The notes under the pieces were generated by a model. That model saw nothing but the letters and a program-made list of their open reading frames with translations, was not told the origin of the DNA and did no database searches. From an uncultured Gammaproteobacteria bacterium (GTDB lineage: Bacteria > Patescibacteriota > Patescibacteriia > UBA1558 > GWA2-36-10), in assembly GCA_964424615.1 (NCBI GenBank), contig CAYRIU010000007.1, forward strand, positions 20,052 to 84,051: a stretch of 64,000 bases of DNA. Direction: 5' to 3'. Positions 26,600-55,708 of the stretch are shown one piece after another. The stretch's first letter is position 1; every line of letters starts with the position of its first letter. A program made the position numbers and the translations under genes.

Positions 26600-26718
26600 A
26601 TTTTAATTAATATTGATGATAAAAAAATTATTTTTCTTCGAGCGACCCTGAGCGAAGTCGAGGGAGAGTCGAGAGGTTATGCTTAGTTCTCGACTAGCTC
26701 GAACAAAAAACCAAAATT

Positions 26719-26748
26719 TGACAAAAACGAGCATTTATTATTATAATA
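26719..26748 (+). promoter_or_regulatory. Sigma70-type promoter TTGACA-18-TATAAT for the sugar-transferase/flippase operon
   Basis: TTGACA at 26719-26724 and TATAAT at 26743-26748. The ATG is at 26773. Confidence 0.6.
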
Positions 26749-41940: not shown

Positions 41941-42989
41941 TGTTTCAAAATTAAAGTAAAAGTTTCCTGGTTATCTACCTTTTTTTCTTTTAGTAAATTA
42001 TTTTTTATACTCTGATAAAAATCGGGCTGACGCATTTTTTCCATAGCCTGGACCAAAGCTTTTTGATTATTTATTGGTATGACTAGACCATGTATATTAT
42101 CTTGTATTATTTCTCTAGCACAGCCCACATCAGTCATAATCACTGGCAAATGACAATTCTTGGCCTCTACCGCTACTAGACCATAGCCTTCGCTGTCAGA
42201 GGTCAAAAGCAAACAATCAGCAGTATGATAAAGGTCGCCTAATTTTTCTTGCCAACCAAAAAATATAACTTGTTCTGTAATATGCAAATCGTCAGCTAAT
42301 TTTTTCAAATTATCTTTTTCTGGACCATCACCCACCACCACTAATTTTATTTTCTGCCGATCTGCTATATTTTTGATTGCAGCTAACTGCAATGCAATAT
42401 TTTTGACTGGAACCAAACGACCGACAGTCAAAAAAATAAAATGCTCCGGATAAATTTTGTGCAAATCAATAATATTGGTGTTAGATAAATTTTCTGTATT
42501 TATAACCACTGGAGCAATATAAATTTTATCGGCACTGACGCCATATTTTTCTATCAGATAATTTTTCAAACGCTGACTTACTACTCGCACCAAATCAGCA
42601 TTTTCTAAACATTTTTTGGCTAAATAATTTCTTAATATATTATTTTTTTCAAAACCATGTATTTGTACTTCATATTTCAAATGAAATTTTTTAGCTAAAA
42701 CTAGACCCAAAAAACCCAAAAAACCACTATCCTGGACAGTCAATAAGTCAAATTTTTCTTTTTGTAATAAACTATTTAAATTTTTATGGACATTAAATAA
42801 AGATGCAAATTTGTTAGAACCATCAATACCCCAAGCAATAACTTGAGCAGATAATTCAATCTTTTGCTCTTTAGCTGGCACCACTACTAAATATTTGTCT
42901 AGTTGATTAGCTAAAACAAGCGTCCGCTGGGCTACAGAAGATTGTGATTCAAATATTTTTTTATCTAAACTTAGAGATAATATTTTCAT
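41919..42989 (-). CDS. Glycosyltransferase family 4
   Basis: 356 aa, GT-B fold. Confidence 0.8.
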   Translation of the reverse strand: MKILSLSLDKKIFESQSSVAQRTLVLANQLDKYLVVVPAKEQKIELSAQVIAWGIDGSNKFASLFNVHKNLNSLLQKEKFDLLTVQDSGFLGFLGLVLAKKFHLKYEVQIHGFEKNNILRNYLAKKCLENADLVRVVSQRLKNYLIEKYGVSADKIYIAPVVINTENLSNTNIIDLHKIYPEHFIFLTVGRLVPVKNIALQLAAIKNIADRQKIKLVVVGDGPEKDNLKKLADDLHITEQVIFFGWQEKLGDLYHTADCLLLTSDSEGYGLVAVEAKNCHLPVIMTDVGCAREIIQDNIHGLVIPINNQKALVQAMEKMRQPDFYQSIKNNLLKEKKVDNQETFTLILKQWQAIKK

Positions 42990-44098
42990 GATTGTAATAT
43001 CTTTATAGTATCAATAGCGGCTTGATTATAAGAATAATTATAACTCAAATACTTTATTTTCTGGGAATAATTTATATAATTATTATCTTCTTCCAATTTT
43101 TGCAGACACTGAGTGATTTCTTCAATTTTTTGAGGATCAAACAAAATAATGTCTTTTTTTAACCAGTCAAAACCAATTTCCTGAGAACTAATAAAAGGAA
43201 TTTTGACTTGGATGCAATCCAACATGGTATTGGGACTGATATCACTCAAAGAGGGAAAGATCATTAATCTACTTTCGGCCATTTTTTTAATCAAATTATG
43301 TCTAGATAATTTTTCTGCTAAAACTATATTTTGATAGTTATTTTCCTTAATAAAAAATTCTAACTTACTTTTCAATGGTCCATCGCCAATCAAAACTAAT
43401 CTATATTTATCTTGCGACCAAGCGACAAAAGCTTTGACCAGATTAAAAATATTATTTTTATTTATAAAACGCCCAGCAAAAATAATATCATTATTAATAC
43501 GATTTTCATCCCGCTGAATATTTATTTTTTGGTCAATAGGATTCTGAACAACAGATAATTGTTTATTTGCTAAACCATAATAATGTTTTGTAAAAATATT
43601 TTTTTGCCACTCAGTAGTAAATATGACACCACGACACTGTTCAAAAATCCAATTGATTAATTTAAAACGATTGAGATCTTTTCTATACAAATCTTGTTCA
43701 TAATACTGATCTAGAGTTACCGACTCACTTTCTACGTATCTCTCCCAAATAAAATCACCACCGACTCTGATATAAAGTGGTTTGGCAAAAATACGACTGA
43801 TAGTAGCCGCTGGTAAACCAGCACTAAAATGATCAAAACAATAAATCAGATCATATTTTGGAGTTAATTTAAAAAGCGCCAAAAAATAACGCCAATAATT
43901 ACTTAATTTATTCTTACGTAAAACCCTATGAACCCTATATACCAAAGTTTTGTCTATATCGTATATTTCTTTATCAGAGTAGCATACTACTACTACTTGA
44001 TGACCTTGGGCCAAAAACTGCTCAGCAATAAGCGGAATATAGGTAGCTGGACCTCCTATCTCCGGTGCAAATATGCCTGTAGCAATAAGTATTTTCAT
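42986..44098 (-). CDS. Glycosyltransferase family 4
   Basis: 370 aa, GT-B fold. Confidence 0.8.
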   Translation of the reverse strand: MKILIATGIFAPEIGGPATYIPLIAEQFLAQGHQVVVVCYSDKEIYDIDKTLVYRVHRVLRKNKLSNYWRYFLALFKLTPKYDLIYCFDHFSAGLPAATISRIFAKPLYIRVGGDFIWERYVESESVTLDQYYEQDLYRKDLNRFKLINWIFEQCRGVIFTTEWQKNIFTKHYYGLANKQLSVVQNPIDQKINIQRDENRINNDIIFAGRFINKNNIFNLVKAFVAWSQDKYRLVLIGDGPLKSKLEFFIKENNYQNIVLAEKLSRHNLIKKMAESRLMIFPSLSDISPNTMLDCIQVKIPFISSQEIGFDWLKKDIILFDPQKIEEITQCLQKLEEDNNYINYSQKIKYLSYNYSYNQAAIDTIKILQS

Positions 44099-44108
44099 AT
44101 TTTATATA

Positions 44109-44316
44109 CGCCATTCTGGAATGACACAACAATTAAATATCTTTACTTAAATTTATCCGTCATTCTGGAGGCCGTAGGCCTATAGAATCCCATTGGGATC
44201 CTATCGCTGGACTTCCTCGTCATCCTGAACTTGTTTCAGGATCTCATTGGGATTCCGGATCACCCGCCCGCCATGACCGCCAGTCAGGCGTGTCGGGCGG
44301 GAGTCCGGAATGACAT
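44109..44316. repeat. GC-rich (~50%) structured island with nested inverted repeats, flanked by 11-nt direct repeats c(t/c)ggaatgaca
   Basis: ggaatgac (44120) pairs with gtcattc (44159); gtcatcc (44218) pairs with ggaatgac (44308). Hairpin cccgcccg/cgggcggg (44263-44303). Two copies of cattgggat. Composition contrasts with the ~33% GC surroundings. Confidence 0.5.
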
Positions 44317-44321
44317 AATAA

Positions 44322-44612
44322 CTAAAGCTCTTTACTCAAATCCTTCCAATCCTTATTAAACGAATCAATTAGTTTATTTTTCCAATCTCTATGCCAATTC
44401 TTCAACTGCTTTTCTCTAGAAATAGCCTCATAAACATCCTCATAAATTTCATAATAAACTAACTTATCTACATTATATCTACGAGTAAATCCTTTAGCTA
44501 CTTGCTCTTTGTGTTGAAATATTCGGCCTAATAAATTACTAGTGATGCCTACATACAAGACTGTGTTATTTTTATTTGTCAAAATATAGACAAAATATTG
44601 CTTGTCGTACAT
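44322..44612 (-). CDS. GIY-YIG nuclease family protein
   Basis: 96 aa. YFVYILTN...LYVGITSNLLGRIFQH...YYE...AISREKQLK is the GIY-YIG core. Confidence 0.85.
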   Translation of the reverse strand: MYDKQYFVYILTNKNNTVLYVGITSNLLGRIFQHKEQVAKGFTRRYNVDKLVYYEIYEDVYEAISREKQLKNWHRDWKNKLIDSFNKDWKDLSKEL

Positions 44613-45936: not shown

Positions 45937-46006
45937 AAAAATACCCCCTCTTTTTCTCCCCCTAAATTAGGGGGAGATGTCCGTGAGGACAGAGGGGGTA
46001 TTTTTT
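45937..46006. repeat. ~65-nt nested-hairpin repeat, copy A; probable bidirectional terminator between convergent genes
   Basis: Outer stem taccccctct/agagggggta. Inner perfect palindrome ctccccctaa-a-ttagggggag. Flanked by an A run and a T run. Near-identical to the reverse complement of 55643-55707. Confidence 0.75.
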
Positions 46007-54436: not shown

Positions 54437-54991
54437 TTATTTATTGTTATTCAAAGATTTTAATTTATTGAGTGCCCTATGTATCAACACTCTGATATTA
54501 TTTTTATCCTTTTGCATGATCTGAGCTATGTCATCTATAGATAGATCTTCGACATAGCGTAAGATCAAAACTTCTTGATACTCTGGCTTCATCTTTTGTA
54601 ATAAGTCCAGCAGGGATTGTAAATCAATAGACTTATCAATACTGTCAGTCTTTTGATCAGTATATGGATCCTCTGTCTCATCAGCGTACTCGAGTGGCAA
54701 CTCTTGGCGTCTAGACAAGCGATAAAAATCAATAACGGCATTGCGGGCTACTCGAAAGATAAAAGCACCAAAATTTTGAATGTCTTTTTTATCTACCAGA
54801 TGTTGCCAAGTCTTCAAAAATATATCTTGCGTAATATCTTGAGCCACAGCTTTATCGCTGACCCTAATATAGACAAATCGATAAACCCTGGTCATATATT
54901 GGTCATAAAAAAAAGCAAAAGCTTCAGAATCGCCATTTTTCAGCTTTAGCAACTGTATTTTCTCTTGTAAACTATCCTTCAAACTGTACAT
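54437..54991 (-). CDS. ECF-family sigma-70 factor
   Basis: 184 aa. Region 2 (FYDQYMTRVYRFVYIRV...DITQDIFLKTW) and region 4 HTH (QEVLILRYVEDLSIDDIAQIM...IRVLIHRALNKLK). Confidence 0.88.
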   Translation of the reverse strand: MYSLKDSLQEKIQLLKLKNGDSEAFAFFYDQYMTRVYRFVYIRVSDKAVAQDITQDIFLKTWQHLVDKKDIQNFGAFIFRVARNAVIDFYRLSRRQELPLEYADETEDPYTDQKTDSIDKSIDLQSLLDLLQKMKPEYQEVLILRYVEDLSIDDIAQIMQKDKNNIRVLIHRALNKLKSLNNNK

Positions 54992-55169
54992 AAATATAGA
55001 CGGGCTTAATCTAGAAATATTACACCCTAATTAGGCCAATTAGGCCATATTTTACACTATAATGCCCACAAATGTAAATCGTGGTAATATATAGACCACA
55101 TTATACCAGAATTTGCTATGTTTGTAAAGTATCACAAATGGCTTAAAAATTAAGATATATCAGTAAAAA

Positions 55170-55290
55170 CGGCGCGGTGGACTATGAAAATGTCATTGCG
55201 AGGAGTGTAAACGACGAAGCAATCTATAAGCTGGTAGATTGCCACGTCCCGCCGCGCGGGACTCGCAATGACATTAAGACCACCGCGCCG
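55170..55290. repeat. GC-rich 121-nt long imperfect hairpin (11-bp and 11-bp outer stems plus an inner 7-bp hairpin)
   Basis: cggcgcggtgg (55170-80) pairs with ccaccgcgccg (55280-90). gtcattgcgag (55192-202) pairs with ctcgcaatgac (55262-72). Inner gtcccgc-cgc-gcgggac at 55246-62. Confidence 0.6.
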
Positions 55291-55374
55291 TACTGTTAAT
55301 AACCGTCTCTTAAATTGACTATTAATTGATTAAGGTATAGAATAGTGTATACATAAATACTTATTTTAGATCAT

Positions 55375-55665
55375 ATGGAGAATATAATTAGACTATCAGT
55401 ATCAGAGGCTGCCAAACTAATTGGGGTATCATCCAAAACAATCAGGCAGGCTATCAAAGCTGAAGAGCTAACCTACATAGTAGTCAAAGGACGTTATAAA
55501 ATAAGTTTTGCCTCTCTAGTGGAGTGGTCGCAAAAATCAACCAGAAGATACCACCAATTACAAAAACAAGGTGTCGGGCAATTTGTAGACCAATGGAAAA
55601 TACGCAACAAAAAATATAGCCCAAATCCTGAATTGATCAATAAAAAAATACCCCCTCTGTCCTAG
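55375..55665 (+). CDS. Excisionase-family/MerR-like helix-turn-helix DNA-binding protein (HTH_17)
   Basis: 96 aa. LSVSEAAKLIGVSSKTIRQAIKAEELTYIVVKGRYKISFASLVEW matches the excisionase-family HTH. The last 7 codons run into repeat copy B. Confidence 0.7.
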   Translation: MENIIRLSVSEAAKLIGVSSKTIRQAIKAEELTYIVVKGRYKISFASLVEWSQKSTRRYHQLQKQGVGQFVDQWKIRNKKYSPNPELINKKIPPLS

Positions 55666-55707
55666 CGGACATCTCCCCCTAATTTAGGGGGAGAATGAGG
55701 GGGTATT
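55643..55707. repeat. ~65-nt nested-hairpin repeat, copy B (inverted relative to copy A)
   Basis: aaaaaataccccctctgtcctagcggacatctccccctaatttagggggagaatgagggggtatt differs from the reverse complement of copy A at only a handful of positions. Sits between convergent genes. Confidence 0.75.
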
Positions 55708-55708
55708 A

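Follow-up and report, generated by a model that had tools for sequence, protein, structure and literature searches.

Genomic setting of the hairpin

The window analyzed here is a stretch of 64,000 nucleotides from an uncultured member of the Patescibacteriota (contig CAYRIU010000007.1). This study concerns a GC-rich hairpin of 121 nt in it, at positions 55170–55290, which lies in the 383-bp region between two divergent genes, one encoding an excisionase-family helix-turn-helix (HTH) protein (55375–55665, plus strand; Pfam HTH_17, PF12728) and the other an extracytoplasmic function (ECF) sigma factor on the opposite strand. The hairpin is 85 nt away from the start codon of the HTH gene (ATG at 55375) and 179 nt away from that of the sigma gene (ATG at 54991), in agreement with the distances given in an earlier sequence-only reading of this DNA (85 and about 180 nt). 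The anti-sigma partner of the sigma factor carries DUF5667. Sigma homologues with 62–68% identity come from sources named Patescibacteria, Parcubacteria or Komeilibacteria, which makes a Patescibacteria (CPR) genome the most likely origin of the window; two metagenome-assembled genomes carry closer homologues under other labels, which we take to be binning errors. The 25 most frequent of the 88 Pfam families matched by the 59 proteins of the window point to housekeeping genes, e.g., DnaK, SecY, glycosyltransferases, and the ATPase of the type II secretion system (T2SS), and no recombinase, transposase or integrase was found among them.

Each of the two divergent genes is preceded by a predicted promoter. 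For the sigma operon, a sigma-70-type promoter is predicted on the minus strand at 55100–55128 (TTTACA, 17 nt, TG-n-TATAAT), with 11 of 12 consensus positions matched and a TG extension. The predicted promoter of the HTH gene, on the plus strand at 55315–55343 (TTGACT, 17 nt, TAGAAT), matches 10 of 12 positions. Both point away from the hairpin, which is situated between their −35 boxes (at 55128, minus strand, and at 55315, plus strand); therefore, neither promoter should transcribe it, and the element is probably not transcribed. A promoter scan detected no promoter-like site inside it. The CTTTGTAAAG and TATACCAGA blocks of the sigma promoter are kept in all orthologous regions. The same holds for the GTAGAATAGTGTATAC block of the HTH promoter, which is also present in the more distant locus L130, while L131 has the close variant GTATAGAATATTCTATAC.

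A further conserved site is found immediately upstream of the sigma gene (54997–55024, minus strand). It has the form TGTAAT-N16-CGTCTA and ends 5 nt ahead of the sigma ATG; its blocks TATAGACG and ATATTACA are invariant in all orthologues, L130 and L131 included. The arrangement resembles an autoregulated promoter of the ECF type, from which a leaderless sigma mRNA would be made.

Structure of the hairpin

All stems lie exactly where the sequence-only reading had placed them. The left arm of the outer stem, CGGCGCGGTGG (55170–55180), is the exact complement of the right arm, CCACCGCGCCG (55280–55290). Inside it are the inner arms, GTCATTGCGAG (55192–55202) and CTCGCAATGAC (55262–55272), and a perfect 7-bp hairpin, GTCCCGC-CGC-GCGGGAC (55246–55262), separated from the left inner arm by 43 nt. 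The outer stem and the core are joined by two mostly unpaired spacers, ACTATGAAAA on the left (10 nt, 55181–55190) and TTAAGA on the right (6 nt, 55274–55279). Each of the two 11-mers, that of the outer stem and that of the inner arm, occurs at a single locus within the window. The element is indeed GC-rich, although its GC content is 56% rather than about 60%, and that of the window is 35% rather than 33%.

The predicted folds are very stable. For RNA, the folding energy is −69.4 kcal/mol for the plus strand (z = −10.8) and −70.0 kcal/mol for the minus strand (z = −9.1), and in neither case was any of 200 shuffled sequences as good; for DNA, it is −43.9 kcal/mol (z = −10.2), again with no shuffle as good. 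Along the minus strand, TTTTT comes right after the hairpin (55165–55169 in plus-strand coordinates), a run that is not kept in the orthologues. No target-site duplication was found at the borders (AAAAA/CGGCG on the left, CGCCG/TACTG on the right), nor at those of the orthologous hairpins in L109, L122, L126 and L128. Rfam yielded no match at the gathering score in the whole window and 10 related loci, and a search of the element region with E-values up to 10 gave a sole match of 15.5 bits, which we judge to be due to chance.

The core is a doublet of inverted REP-like units

The core of the hairpin (55191–55273) is comprised of two inverted units that resemble repetitive extragenic palindromes (REPs) and share the form TGTC-ATTGC-GAG-(variable mini-hairpin)-GNN-GCAAT-CTA. 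Unit A (55191–55226, plus strand) reads TGTC-ATTGC-GAG-GAGTGTAAACGAC-GAA-GCAAT-CTA, its 13-nt insert being a decayed mini-hairpin; unit B (55235–55273, minus strand) reads TGTC-ATTGC-GAG-TCCCGCGCGGCGGGAC-GTG-GCAAT-CTA, with an insert of 16 nt. Between them lies the spacer TAAGCTGG (55227–55234), the apical loop of a central helix GCAATCTA/TAGATTGC. The TGTC tags are outermost (55191–55194 on the plus strand for unit A, 55273–55270 on the minus strand for unit B), and the partners are unlike, as they differ both in GAAGCAAT versus GTGGCAAT and in their inserts.

The stem of each unit opens with ATT/AAT and has 5 bp (ATTGC/GCAAT), beyond which come a GAG/GNN internal loop and another hairpin. 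The units can either fold singly or pair with each other to form the long hairpin, in which their CTA tails pair mutually. In unit A, the insert contains TGTAAAC where the orthologous locus L122 has an intact mini-hairpin, CCGTAGG, while unit B has the 7-bp hairpin with a 3-nt loop in place of the mini-hairpin motif.

The doublet belongs to a family found in several phyla

The hint of the sequence-only reading that the hairpin might belong to a family was borne out. The pattern GTCATTGCGAG-N30-60-CTCGCAATGAC was found in 92 contigs of a viral collection (L005–L096), with GC content from 37 to 74%; the number of chance matches to its 22 fixed bases is estimated, not computed, to be well below one. 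A scan of genomes revealed the same doublets in Bradyrhizobium, Methylobacterium, Sphingomonas, Sphingopyxis, Allosphingosinicella, Anaerolineae, Dehalococcoidia, and Hymenobacter. Some loci carry several copies per 8 kb, e.g., six matches to the arm motif in L104 and four in L110. BLAST of the element against phage records produced no match, and the sole plasmid match was that of unit A, which shares 94% identity over 33 nt with a unit carried by Methylocystis plasmids.

Among the 91 distinct doublets in the viral collection, GNNGCAAT, which was not required by the search, is present in 85 of the left and 82 of the right units, and parsing with a regular expression gave these 167 units one architecture. 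The variants of GNNGCAAT are GAAGCAAT (122 units), GCGGCAAT (21), and GTGGCAAT (16). The tail is CCA in 105 of the 167 units (63%) and CTA, as in both window units, in four. The base preceding GTC, calculated over 93 family doublets, is C in 69% and T in 26% of cases. The inserts fall into two main size classes, 6 nt and 12–13 nt. Both window units are parsed by the same expression into the identical architecture.

Many of the unit cores contain a recognizable structural motif. GCGNAGC with all four bases at N, CCGNAGG or similar was found in 35 of 83 distinct unit cores, while shuffled cores gave 5.8 on average and 11 at most. The motif d(GCGNAGC) is a very stable DNA mini-hairpin (review, PMC13037366), and its presence favours a single-stranded DNA structure rather than an RNA.

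The enclosing outer stem, by contrast, is not a general feature of the doublet family. Complementarity of the flanks around the 93 doublets is the same as in a control with shuffled partners, the exceptions being L013 (14 nt) and L009. When the outer stem was considered as a widespread family in its own right, CGGCGCGGTGG-N80-110-CCACCGCGCCG gave three matches in the viral collection, all of them unrelated, coding-like and high in GC. A search for the outer stem beside the inner arm in 596 Gb of genomes gave 22 matches, only one of which, the orthologous locus L109, is homologous; the remaining 21 are chance juxtapositions in repeat-rich high-GC genomes or are unrelated.

The 150 open reading frames (ORFs) adjoining the doublets contain no transposase, Y1_Tnp included, among the 25 most frequent of 56 matched Pfam families. 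Genes for terminases, portal and capsid proteins, and structural proteins of gene transfer agents (GTAs) predominate, which reflects the viral/GTA bias of the collection. Many of the doublet-bearing contigs labelled viral (L005–L096) have the doublet next to terminase, portal or capsid genes, GTA-type domains being found as well, which suggests that many of these matches come from GTA-like or prophage clusters of alphaproteobacteria. Separately, a contig with 43% GC (L144, IMGVR_UViG_3300029305_010155) carries five doublets of the GTCATTCTGGAG type in 5.3 kb, inside tandem repeats of about 500 nt; their 47-nt spacer is conserved in four of them and reverse-complemented in the fifth.

The same locus in related Patescibacteria

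For comparison, we collected sigma/HTH intergenic regions from relatives whose sigma proteins are 80–93% identical to that of the window. Contigs L001–L004 come from the same strain, and a metagenome scan with the sigma protein added one more orthologue, L134. The order of genes (PDZ protease, HTH, sigma, anti-sigma) is kept on either side of the spacer throughout the relatives, even where the element is missing. Conservation in relatives, on which the sequence-only reading had left the matter to depend, was evident: long hairpins whose outer stems are homologous occupy this spot in eight distinct related loci of Patescibacteria. In L109, L122/L123, L124, L125, L126/L127, L128, and L134 the z-score of the DNA fold ranges from −6.6 to −9.9.

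The outer stem has the form (G)CGGC-NNNN-TGG(CC) and is paired in every one of these loci. It is CGGC-GCGG-TGG in the window, L109 and L126, and GGCGCGGTGAC in L124 and L125. In L134 it extends to 14 bp (GCGGC-TCGC-TGGCC/GGCCA-GCGA-GCCGC), the middle 4 bp being altered on both arms, and in L128 it is shorter, GCGGCCAG/CTGGCCGC.

The contents of the hairpin vary. The same heterodimer as in the window is present in L122, L126 and L128, each time with a perfect unit B hairpin that differs from that of the window (ACCAGCCCTTC/GAAGGGCTGGT in L122 and L126, TCCCGTCGCG/CGCGACGGGA in L128). In L109 the heterodimer carries a nested palindrome. L124 and L125 contain a different palindrome, CCCCTTGACA/TGTCAAGGGG, and L134 has a doublet of the GTCATTCTGGAG type, like the unit at 44158–44192 of the window. 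Some changes in L126 keep pairs as G-U; the covariation analysis covered four orthologues, too few to separate selection from template-switch correction.

L126 and L128 carry the reverse complement of the composite, spacers included, as it stands in the window, L122 and L109. The left spacer ACTATGAAAA is homologous to CCTATGTTTAT in L109 and L122, and in L126 and L128 it is found reverse-complemented on the opposite side. Likewise, the inter-unit spacer TAAGCTGG is conserved in L122 and is present as the exact reverse complement in L126, and the right spacer TTAAGA is homologous to ATTAGAAG in L122 and, as the reverse complement, to ATTGGAGG in L126. Alignment scores in the reverse-complement and forward orientations were 88.5 versus 35 for L122 and L126, 71 versus 37 for the window and L126, and 51.5 versus 24.5 for the window and L128. 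A separate case is the pair L124 and L125 (45 versus 18, with 52 of 58 bases identical), whose sigma genes are 97% identical at the DNA level. Among close relatives there are at least two independent inversions. These are unlikely to be assembly artefacts, as the longest perfect inverted repeat, 14 bp, is shorter than the assembly k-mers, and independent assemblies of the same strain agree in orientation (the window with L001–L004 and L129, L122 with L123, L126 with L127).

The GC-rich hairpin is absent from more distant relatives. At the equivalent position, L130 (68% sigma identity) has an unrelated 16-bp inverted repeat around 78 AT-rich bases, and L131 (66%) has no GC-rich element at all, although it retains the genes and both promoter motifs.

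Several further observations were made at these loci. In L130 (2042–2500 of ENA ERZ27247363 k141_1172609) the perfect repeat CCCCGCTAGAGGTGCC/GGCACCTCTAGCGGGG abuts the −35 box of the sigma promoter. L129 (JGI Ga0182407_112347) agrees with the window in every base of the intergenic region and of the initial 120 nt of the sigma gene, while the remainder of the sigma gene is only about 60–80% identical; this contig is either recombinant or a chimeric assembly. Perfect palindromes of 15 bp, in one to three copies, are found between the sigma promoter and the hairpin in L109, L122/L123, L124, L125, and L134, and are not present in the window; they read CAACCTCGAAGGTTG (CAACCTTCGAGGTTG in L134) or CAACCCGTCGGGTTG. 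L125 has a further 15-bp palindrome near the HTH start, and an indel of about 60 nt between the copies distinguishes L124 from L125.

Comparison with known palindromic repeats

REPs have been divided into GTAG-tagged and CGTC-tagged superfamilies (Di Nocera, De Gregorio and Rocco, 2013, BMC Genomics 14:522; PMC3733652). In CGTC repeats the tag is often TGTC, CCTC being allowed, the stem opens with A-T pairs, the tail is CCA, and head-to-head (HH) dimers with the tags outside predominate, often with unlike partners (PMC3733652). These repeats are known from five phyla, chiefly from alphaproteobacteria, recur in many copies per genome, for the most part extragenically, have no known dedicated transposase, and include dRS3 of Neisseria and RPE-4 and RPE-6 of Rickettsia; four families have stems of 8–9 bp and loops of 4–5 nt, complex stem-loops being drawn with part of the pairing counted as loop (PMC3733652).

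The element resembles CGTC-tagged REPs in several respects, namely, the unpaired terminal tag, which is TGTC in both window units, the A-T opening of the stem, the HH heterodimer, the extragenic position, the presence in multiple phyla, the lack of a linked transposase among the Pfam families listed above, and a spacer within the doublet of 20–100 bp or shorter. The short tail is CCA in 63% of the family units and CTA in the window. Differences are the host, a member of the Patescibacteria with 35% GC, the very few copies in 64 kb, and the extra outer stem that encloses the window doublet.

The other well-studied arrangement is that of REP doublets forming hairpins (REPINs) or bacterial interspersed mosaic elements (BIMEs), which in E. 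coli and Pseudomonas are linked to REP-associated tyrosine transposases (RAYTs). Similar to these, the element is extragenic and combines two inverted REP units into a single long hairpin, each unit having a conserved 4-nt tag at its foot, and a single-stranded DNA hairpin is the likely substrate. Unlike the GT[AG]G guide tetranucleotide of REPINs, however, the tag is (C/T)GTC, and no RAYT or other Y1 transposase was seen among the listed Pfam families next to family members. Moreover, REPINs are species-specific and co-evolve with their RAYT, whereas the present unit is nearly constant in genomes with GC content from 37 to 74%.

The sequence-only reading had also considered a miniature inverted-repeat transposable element (MITE). 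Taken as a repeat family or MITE-like element, this proposal is in essence correct: like a MITE, the element is small (121 nt), non-coding, intergenic and bounded by terminal inverted repeats, and it is a member of a repeat family. On the other hand, it has no visible target-site duplication, no related transposase or parent insertion sequence was found, and the outer "terminal repeats" do not occur elsewhere in the window and have only chance high-GC matches in the viral collection, so that it is MITE-like rather than a MITE in the strict sense. The likeness to mini-hairpin DNA is of a different kind. Cores with GCGAAGC, GCGCAGC, GCGTAGC, GCGGAGC or CCGNAGG are well above chance in the family, but the mini-hairpin is a structural motif and not an element family, and unit A of the window has lost it.

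Literature searches with GTCATTGCGAG, GAAGCAATCCAG and other strings returned unrelated primers only, and our literature searches turned up no report of CGTC-type repeats in Patescibacteria.

Interpretation of the element

On these grounds, we consider it probable that the hairpin is a selfish composite DNA palindrome similar to REPs and REPINs, i.e., a CGTC/TGTC-tagged doublet inside a lineage-specific outer stem, and not a gene. The kind of element is most likely an ordinary one, found here in an unusual host. Its units belong to the repeat family, and the hairpin occupies the same position in eight loci and is absent from more distant relatives. Its content has been turned over, by nested insertion and by replacement with another palindrome or another REP subfamily, and the composite as a whole has been inverted repeatedly.

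The following scenario would account for these features. In the clade's ancestor, the composite hairpin would have arrived in a spacer that tolerates insertions and is probably not transcribed, to be remodelled later by nested insertion, replacement and inversion. It may both work and evolve in the form of single-stranded DNA hairpins or an extruded cruciform, its units spreading via single-stranded intermediates with the help of a trans-acting enzyme. Template or strand switching at the inverted repeats during replication, rather than selection for any product, would yield both the complementarity of the arms and the inversions. Any effect on the promoters, such as soaking up negative supercoils or stopping stray antisense transcription, would be secondary. 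Work on E. coli has documented both the correction of quasi-palindromes and the switching of strands between inverted repeats in the course of replication. Since such processes would keep the arms perfect and flip the interior even in the absence of selection, the compensatory changes seen in the outer stem are weak evidence for function.

A number of points weigh against this interpretation. The copy number is low, with one GTCATTGCGAG doublet and four units of sister subfamilies in 64 kb, and no local proliferation was seen. We found neither an empty outer hairpin nor a fresh insertion with recognizable junctions, and mobility at this site is inferred from the turnover. The absence of transcription is predicted from the promoter consensus alone. 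Persistence in every close relative and the two-arm changes of the outer stem would also be explained by selection for a function of the hairpin as such. Finally, the units, with a stem of 5 bp, an internal loop and another hairpin, depart from the stems of 8–9 bp and loops of 4–5 nt described for CGTC families, and the exact GTCATTGCGAG is absent from the searchable text and supplements of PMC3733652. For the latter two reasons, we file the element, which fits the CGTC superfamily by its sequence features, at the superfamily level only and not under any of the four numbered families.

Alternative explanations

It seems rather unlikely that the outer hairpin is a conserved dock which captures, exchanges and flips palindromes, or else a selected supercoil-absorbing insulator or functional cruciform. 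The captured palindromes would be the GTCATTGCGAG doublet, the GTCATTCTGGAG doublet and the CCCCTTGACA palindrome.

A selected cis-acting structure, in which the outer hairpin or cruciform insulates or tunes the divergent promoters, for instance by taking up negative supercoils or by serving as the binding site of a regulator, e.g., the neighbouring HTH protein, and the REP doublet is a passenger, is in our view unlikely. It would agree with the presence of the hairpin in all eight distinct relatives with at least 80% sigma identity and with its location exactly between the divergent −35 boxes. The homologous outer stem stays perfectly paired, even in L134, where both arms have changed (TCGC/GCGA, 14 bp), and in L130 the corresponding place holds a 16-bp inverted repeat of another sequence. 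However, L131 keeps the genes and promoter motifs without the GC-rich element; the outer arms are about 100 bp apart, which is too distant for one dimeric HTH protein unless a cruciform is extruded; the contents, spacers and orientation vary freely, and only eight lineages are available; and template-switch correction, as in E. coli, could keep the arms perfect without selection. The proposal of the sequence-only reading that the hairpin is a site recognized by the adjacent HTH protein is not supported, as L131 retains the HTH gene along with the sigma gene and promoter motifs, and the hairpin contents are exchanged among relatives.

The inversions themselves raise the possibility of a phase-variable inverton, in which the outer or inner inverted repeats would serve as invertase sites, with expression of the sigma or HTH gene depending on the orientation. 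A switch of this sort would produce the inversions observed, of which at least two are independent, one of them between genomes with 97% identical sigma genes, as well as the inverted spacer within one contig of the wider family (L144). Still, we regard it as quite improbable: the segment contains no promoter-like site and is nearly palindromic, so flipping alters little, the Pfam matches of the window proteins listed above include no recombinase or transposase, and independent assemblies of one strain share one orientation. Moreover, RecA-independent strand switching at short inverted repeats can give the same outcome.

The small structured non-coding RNA proposed by the sequence-only reading, or a structured leader or terminator RNA, could draw on the very stable predicted RNA fold, the terminator-like arrangement of hairpin and TTTTT on the minus strand, and the G-U pairs preserved in L126. 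It is nevertheless very improbable, as the element is upstream of both predicted promoters and has none inside, the two strands fold equally well, some relatives carry it flipped, the T run is not kept in the orthologues, Rfam gives nothing apart from the one chance match of about 15 bits, and GCGNAGC has been characterized as a DNA mini-hairpin (PMC13037366). Three specific classes of elements were considered as well and rejected. A hammerhead-like element would have a CUGAUGA core and an attC-like site would have R′/R″ boxes (GTTRRRY), and neither is present; an intrinsic terminator is contradicted by a T run found on one strand and in this genome only.

The units of dRS3 in Neisseria are targets for the integration of filamentous prophages. 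An attachment or recombination site of a mobile element, with the excisionase-family HTH protein as the directionality factor, would fit this precedent and the match to HTH_17 (PF12728), but it is extremely improbable, since the gene order is conserved on both sides in all relatives, element-less ones included, and thus nothing has been integrated at the locus, while no integrase is found among the listed families of the window proteins and the HTH gene is present in L131, which has no element.

Other palindromes in the window

The sequence-only reading had noted short motifs shared with a GC-rich island at 44109–44316, and this likeness is real: the island, which sits between ORFs 42986–44098 and 44322–44612 (both on the minus strand), has four REP-like units with CGTC or TGTC tags and the same design, belonging to other subfamilies with other stem sequences (DNA fold z = −5.3). 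The first (44158–44192, plus strand) reads CGTC-ATTCT-GGAG-GCCGTAGGCC-TAT-AGAAT-CCCA, with a hairpin capped by a GTA triloop. The second (44218–44246, plus strand), CGTC-ATCCTGAA-CTTGT-TTCAGGAT-CTCA, has an 8-bp stem and a 5-nt loop and fits the description of the CGTC families exactly. The third (44315–44248, minus strand) reads TGTC-ATTCCGGA...CCCGCCCG/CGGGCGGG...TCCGGAAT-CCCA, and the fourth (44126–44110, minus strand) is truncated.

Two copies of a palindrome of about 66 nt, AAAATACCCCCTCT...CTCCCCCTAAATTAGGGGGAG...AGAGGGGGTATTTT, are found in opposite orientations at 45937–46005 and about 55643–55708. The latter copy encodes the final codons and the stop of the HTH ORF and is followed on the minus strand by T7, which makes it a probable terminator for the convergent PDZ-protease operon. 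Among orthologues, the C-terminus of the HTH protein varies (95–110 aa), because different palindromes occupy this position. Another type of GC-rich palindrome, CTTCGAGCG...GTCGAG.../...CTCGAC...GCTCGAAG, is found at 26636–26720. Elements of the CTTCGAGCG type are also present in L109 (2300–2360) and L134, inserted between the HTH promoter and the start codon.

Implications

Taken at face value, our analysis adds to the hosts of a known class of selfish DNA an AT-rich, reduced Patescibacteria genome, which shares tagged palindromic repeats with alphaproteobacteria, Chloroflexota, and Bacteroidota. It also calls for caution in annotation: GC-rich hairpins of this sort should not be called small RNAs or translated as small ORFs. 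The GCGNAGC mini-hairpin in many family units points to a mode of action that involves single-stranded DNA. No transposase was seen among the 25 most frequent Pfam families of the neighbouring ORFs, in agreement with the lack of a dedicated one reported for CGTC repeats (PMC3733652). If the outer hairpin does act as a dock, doublets of the CGTC type would insert into single-stranded hairpin loops without a linked transposase, and the locus would be a natural experiment for finding the mobilizing machinery. The orthologous series displays inversion and swapping of contents over a very short evolutionary scale, with flanking genes 97% identical, and a small locus with such repeated turnover could help to reveal how such repeats move.

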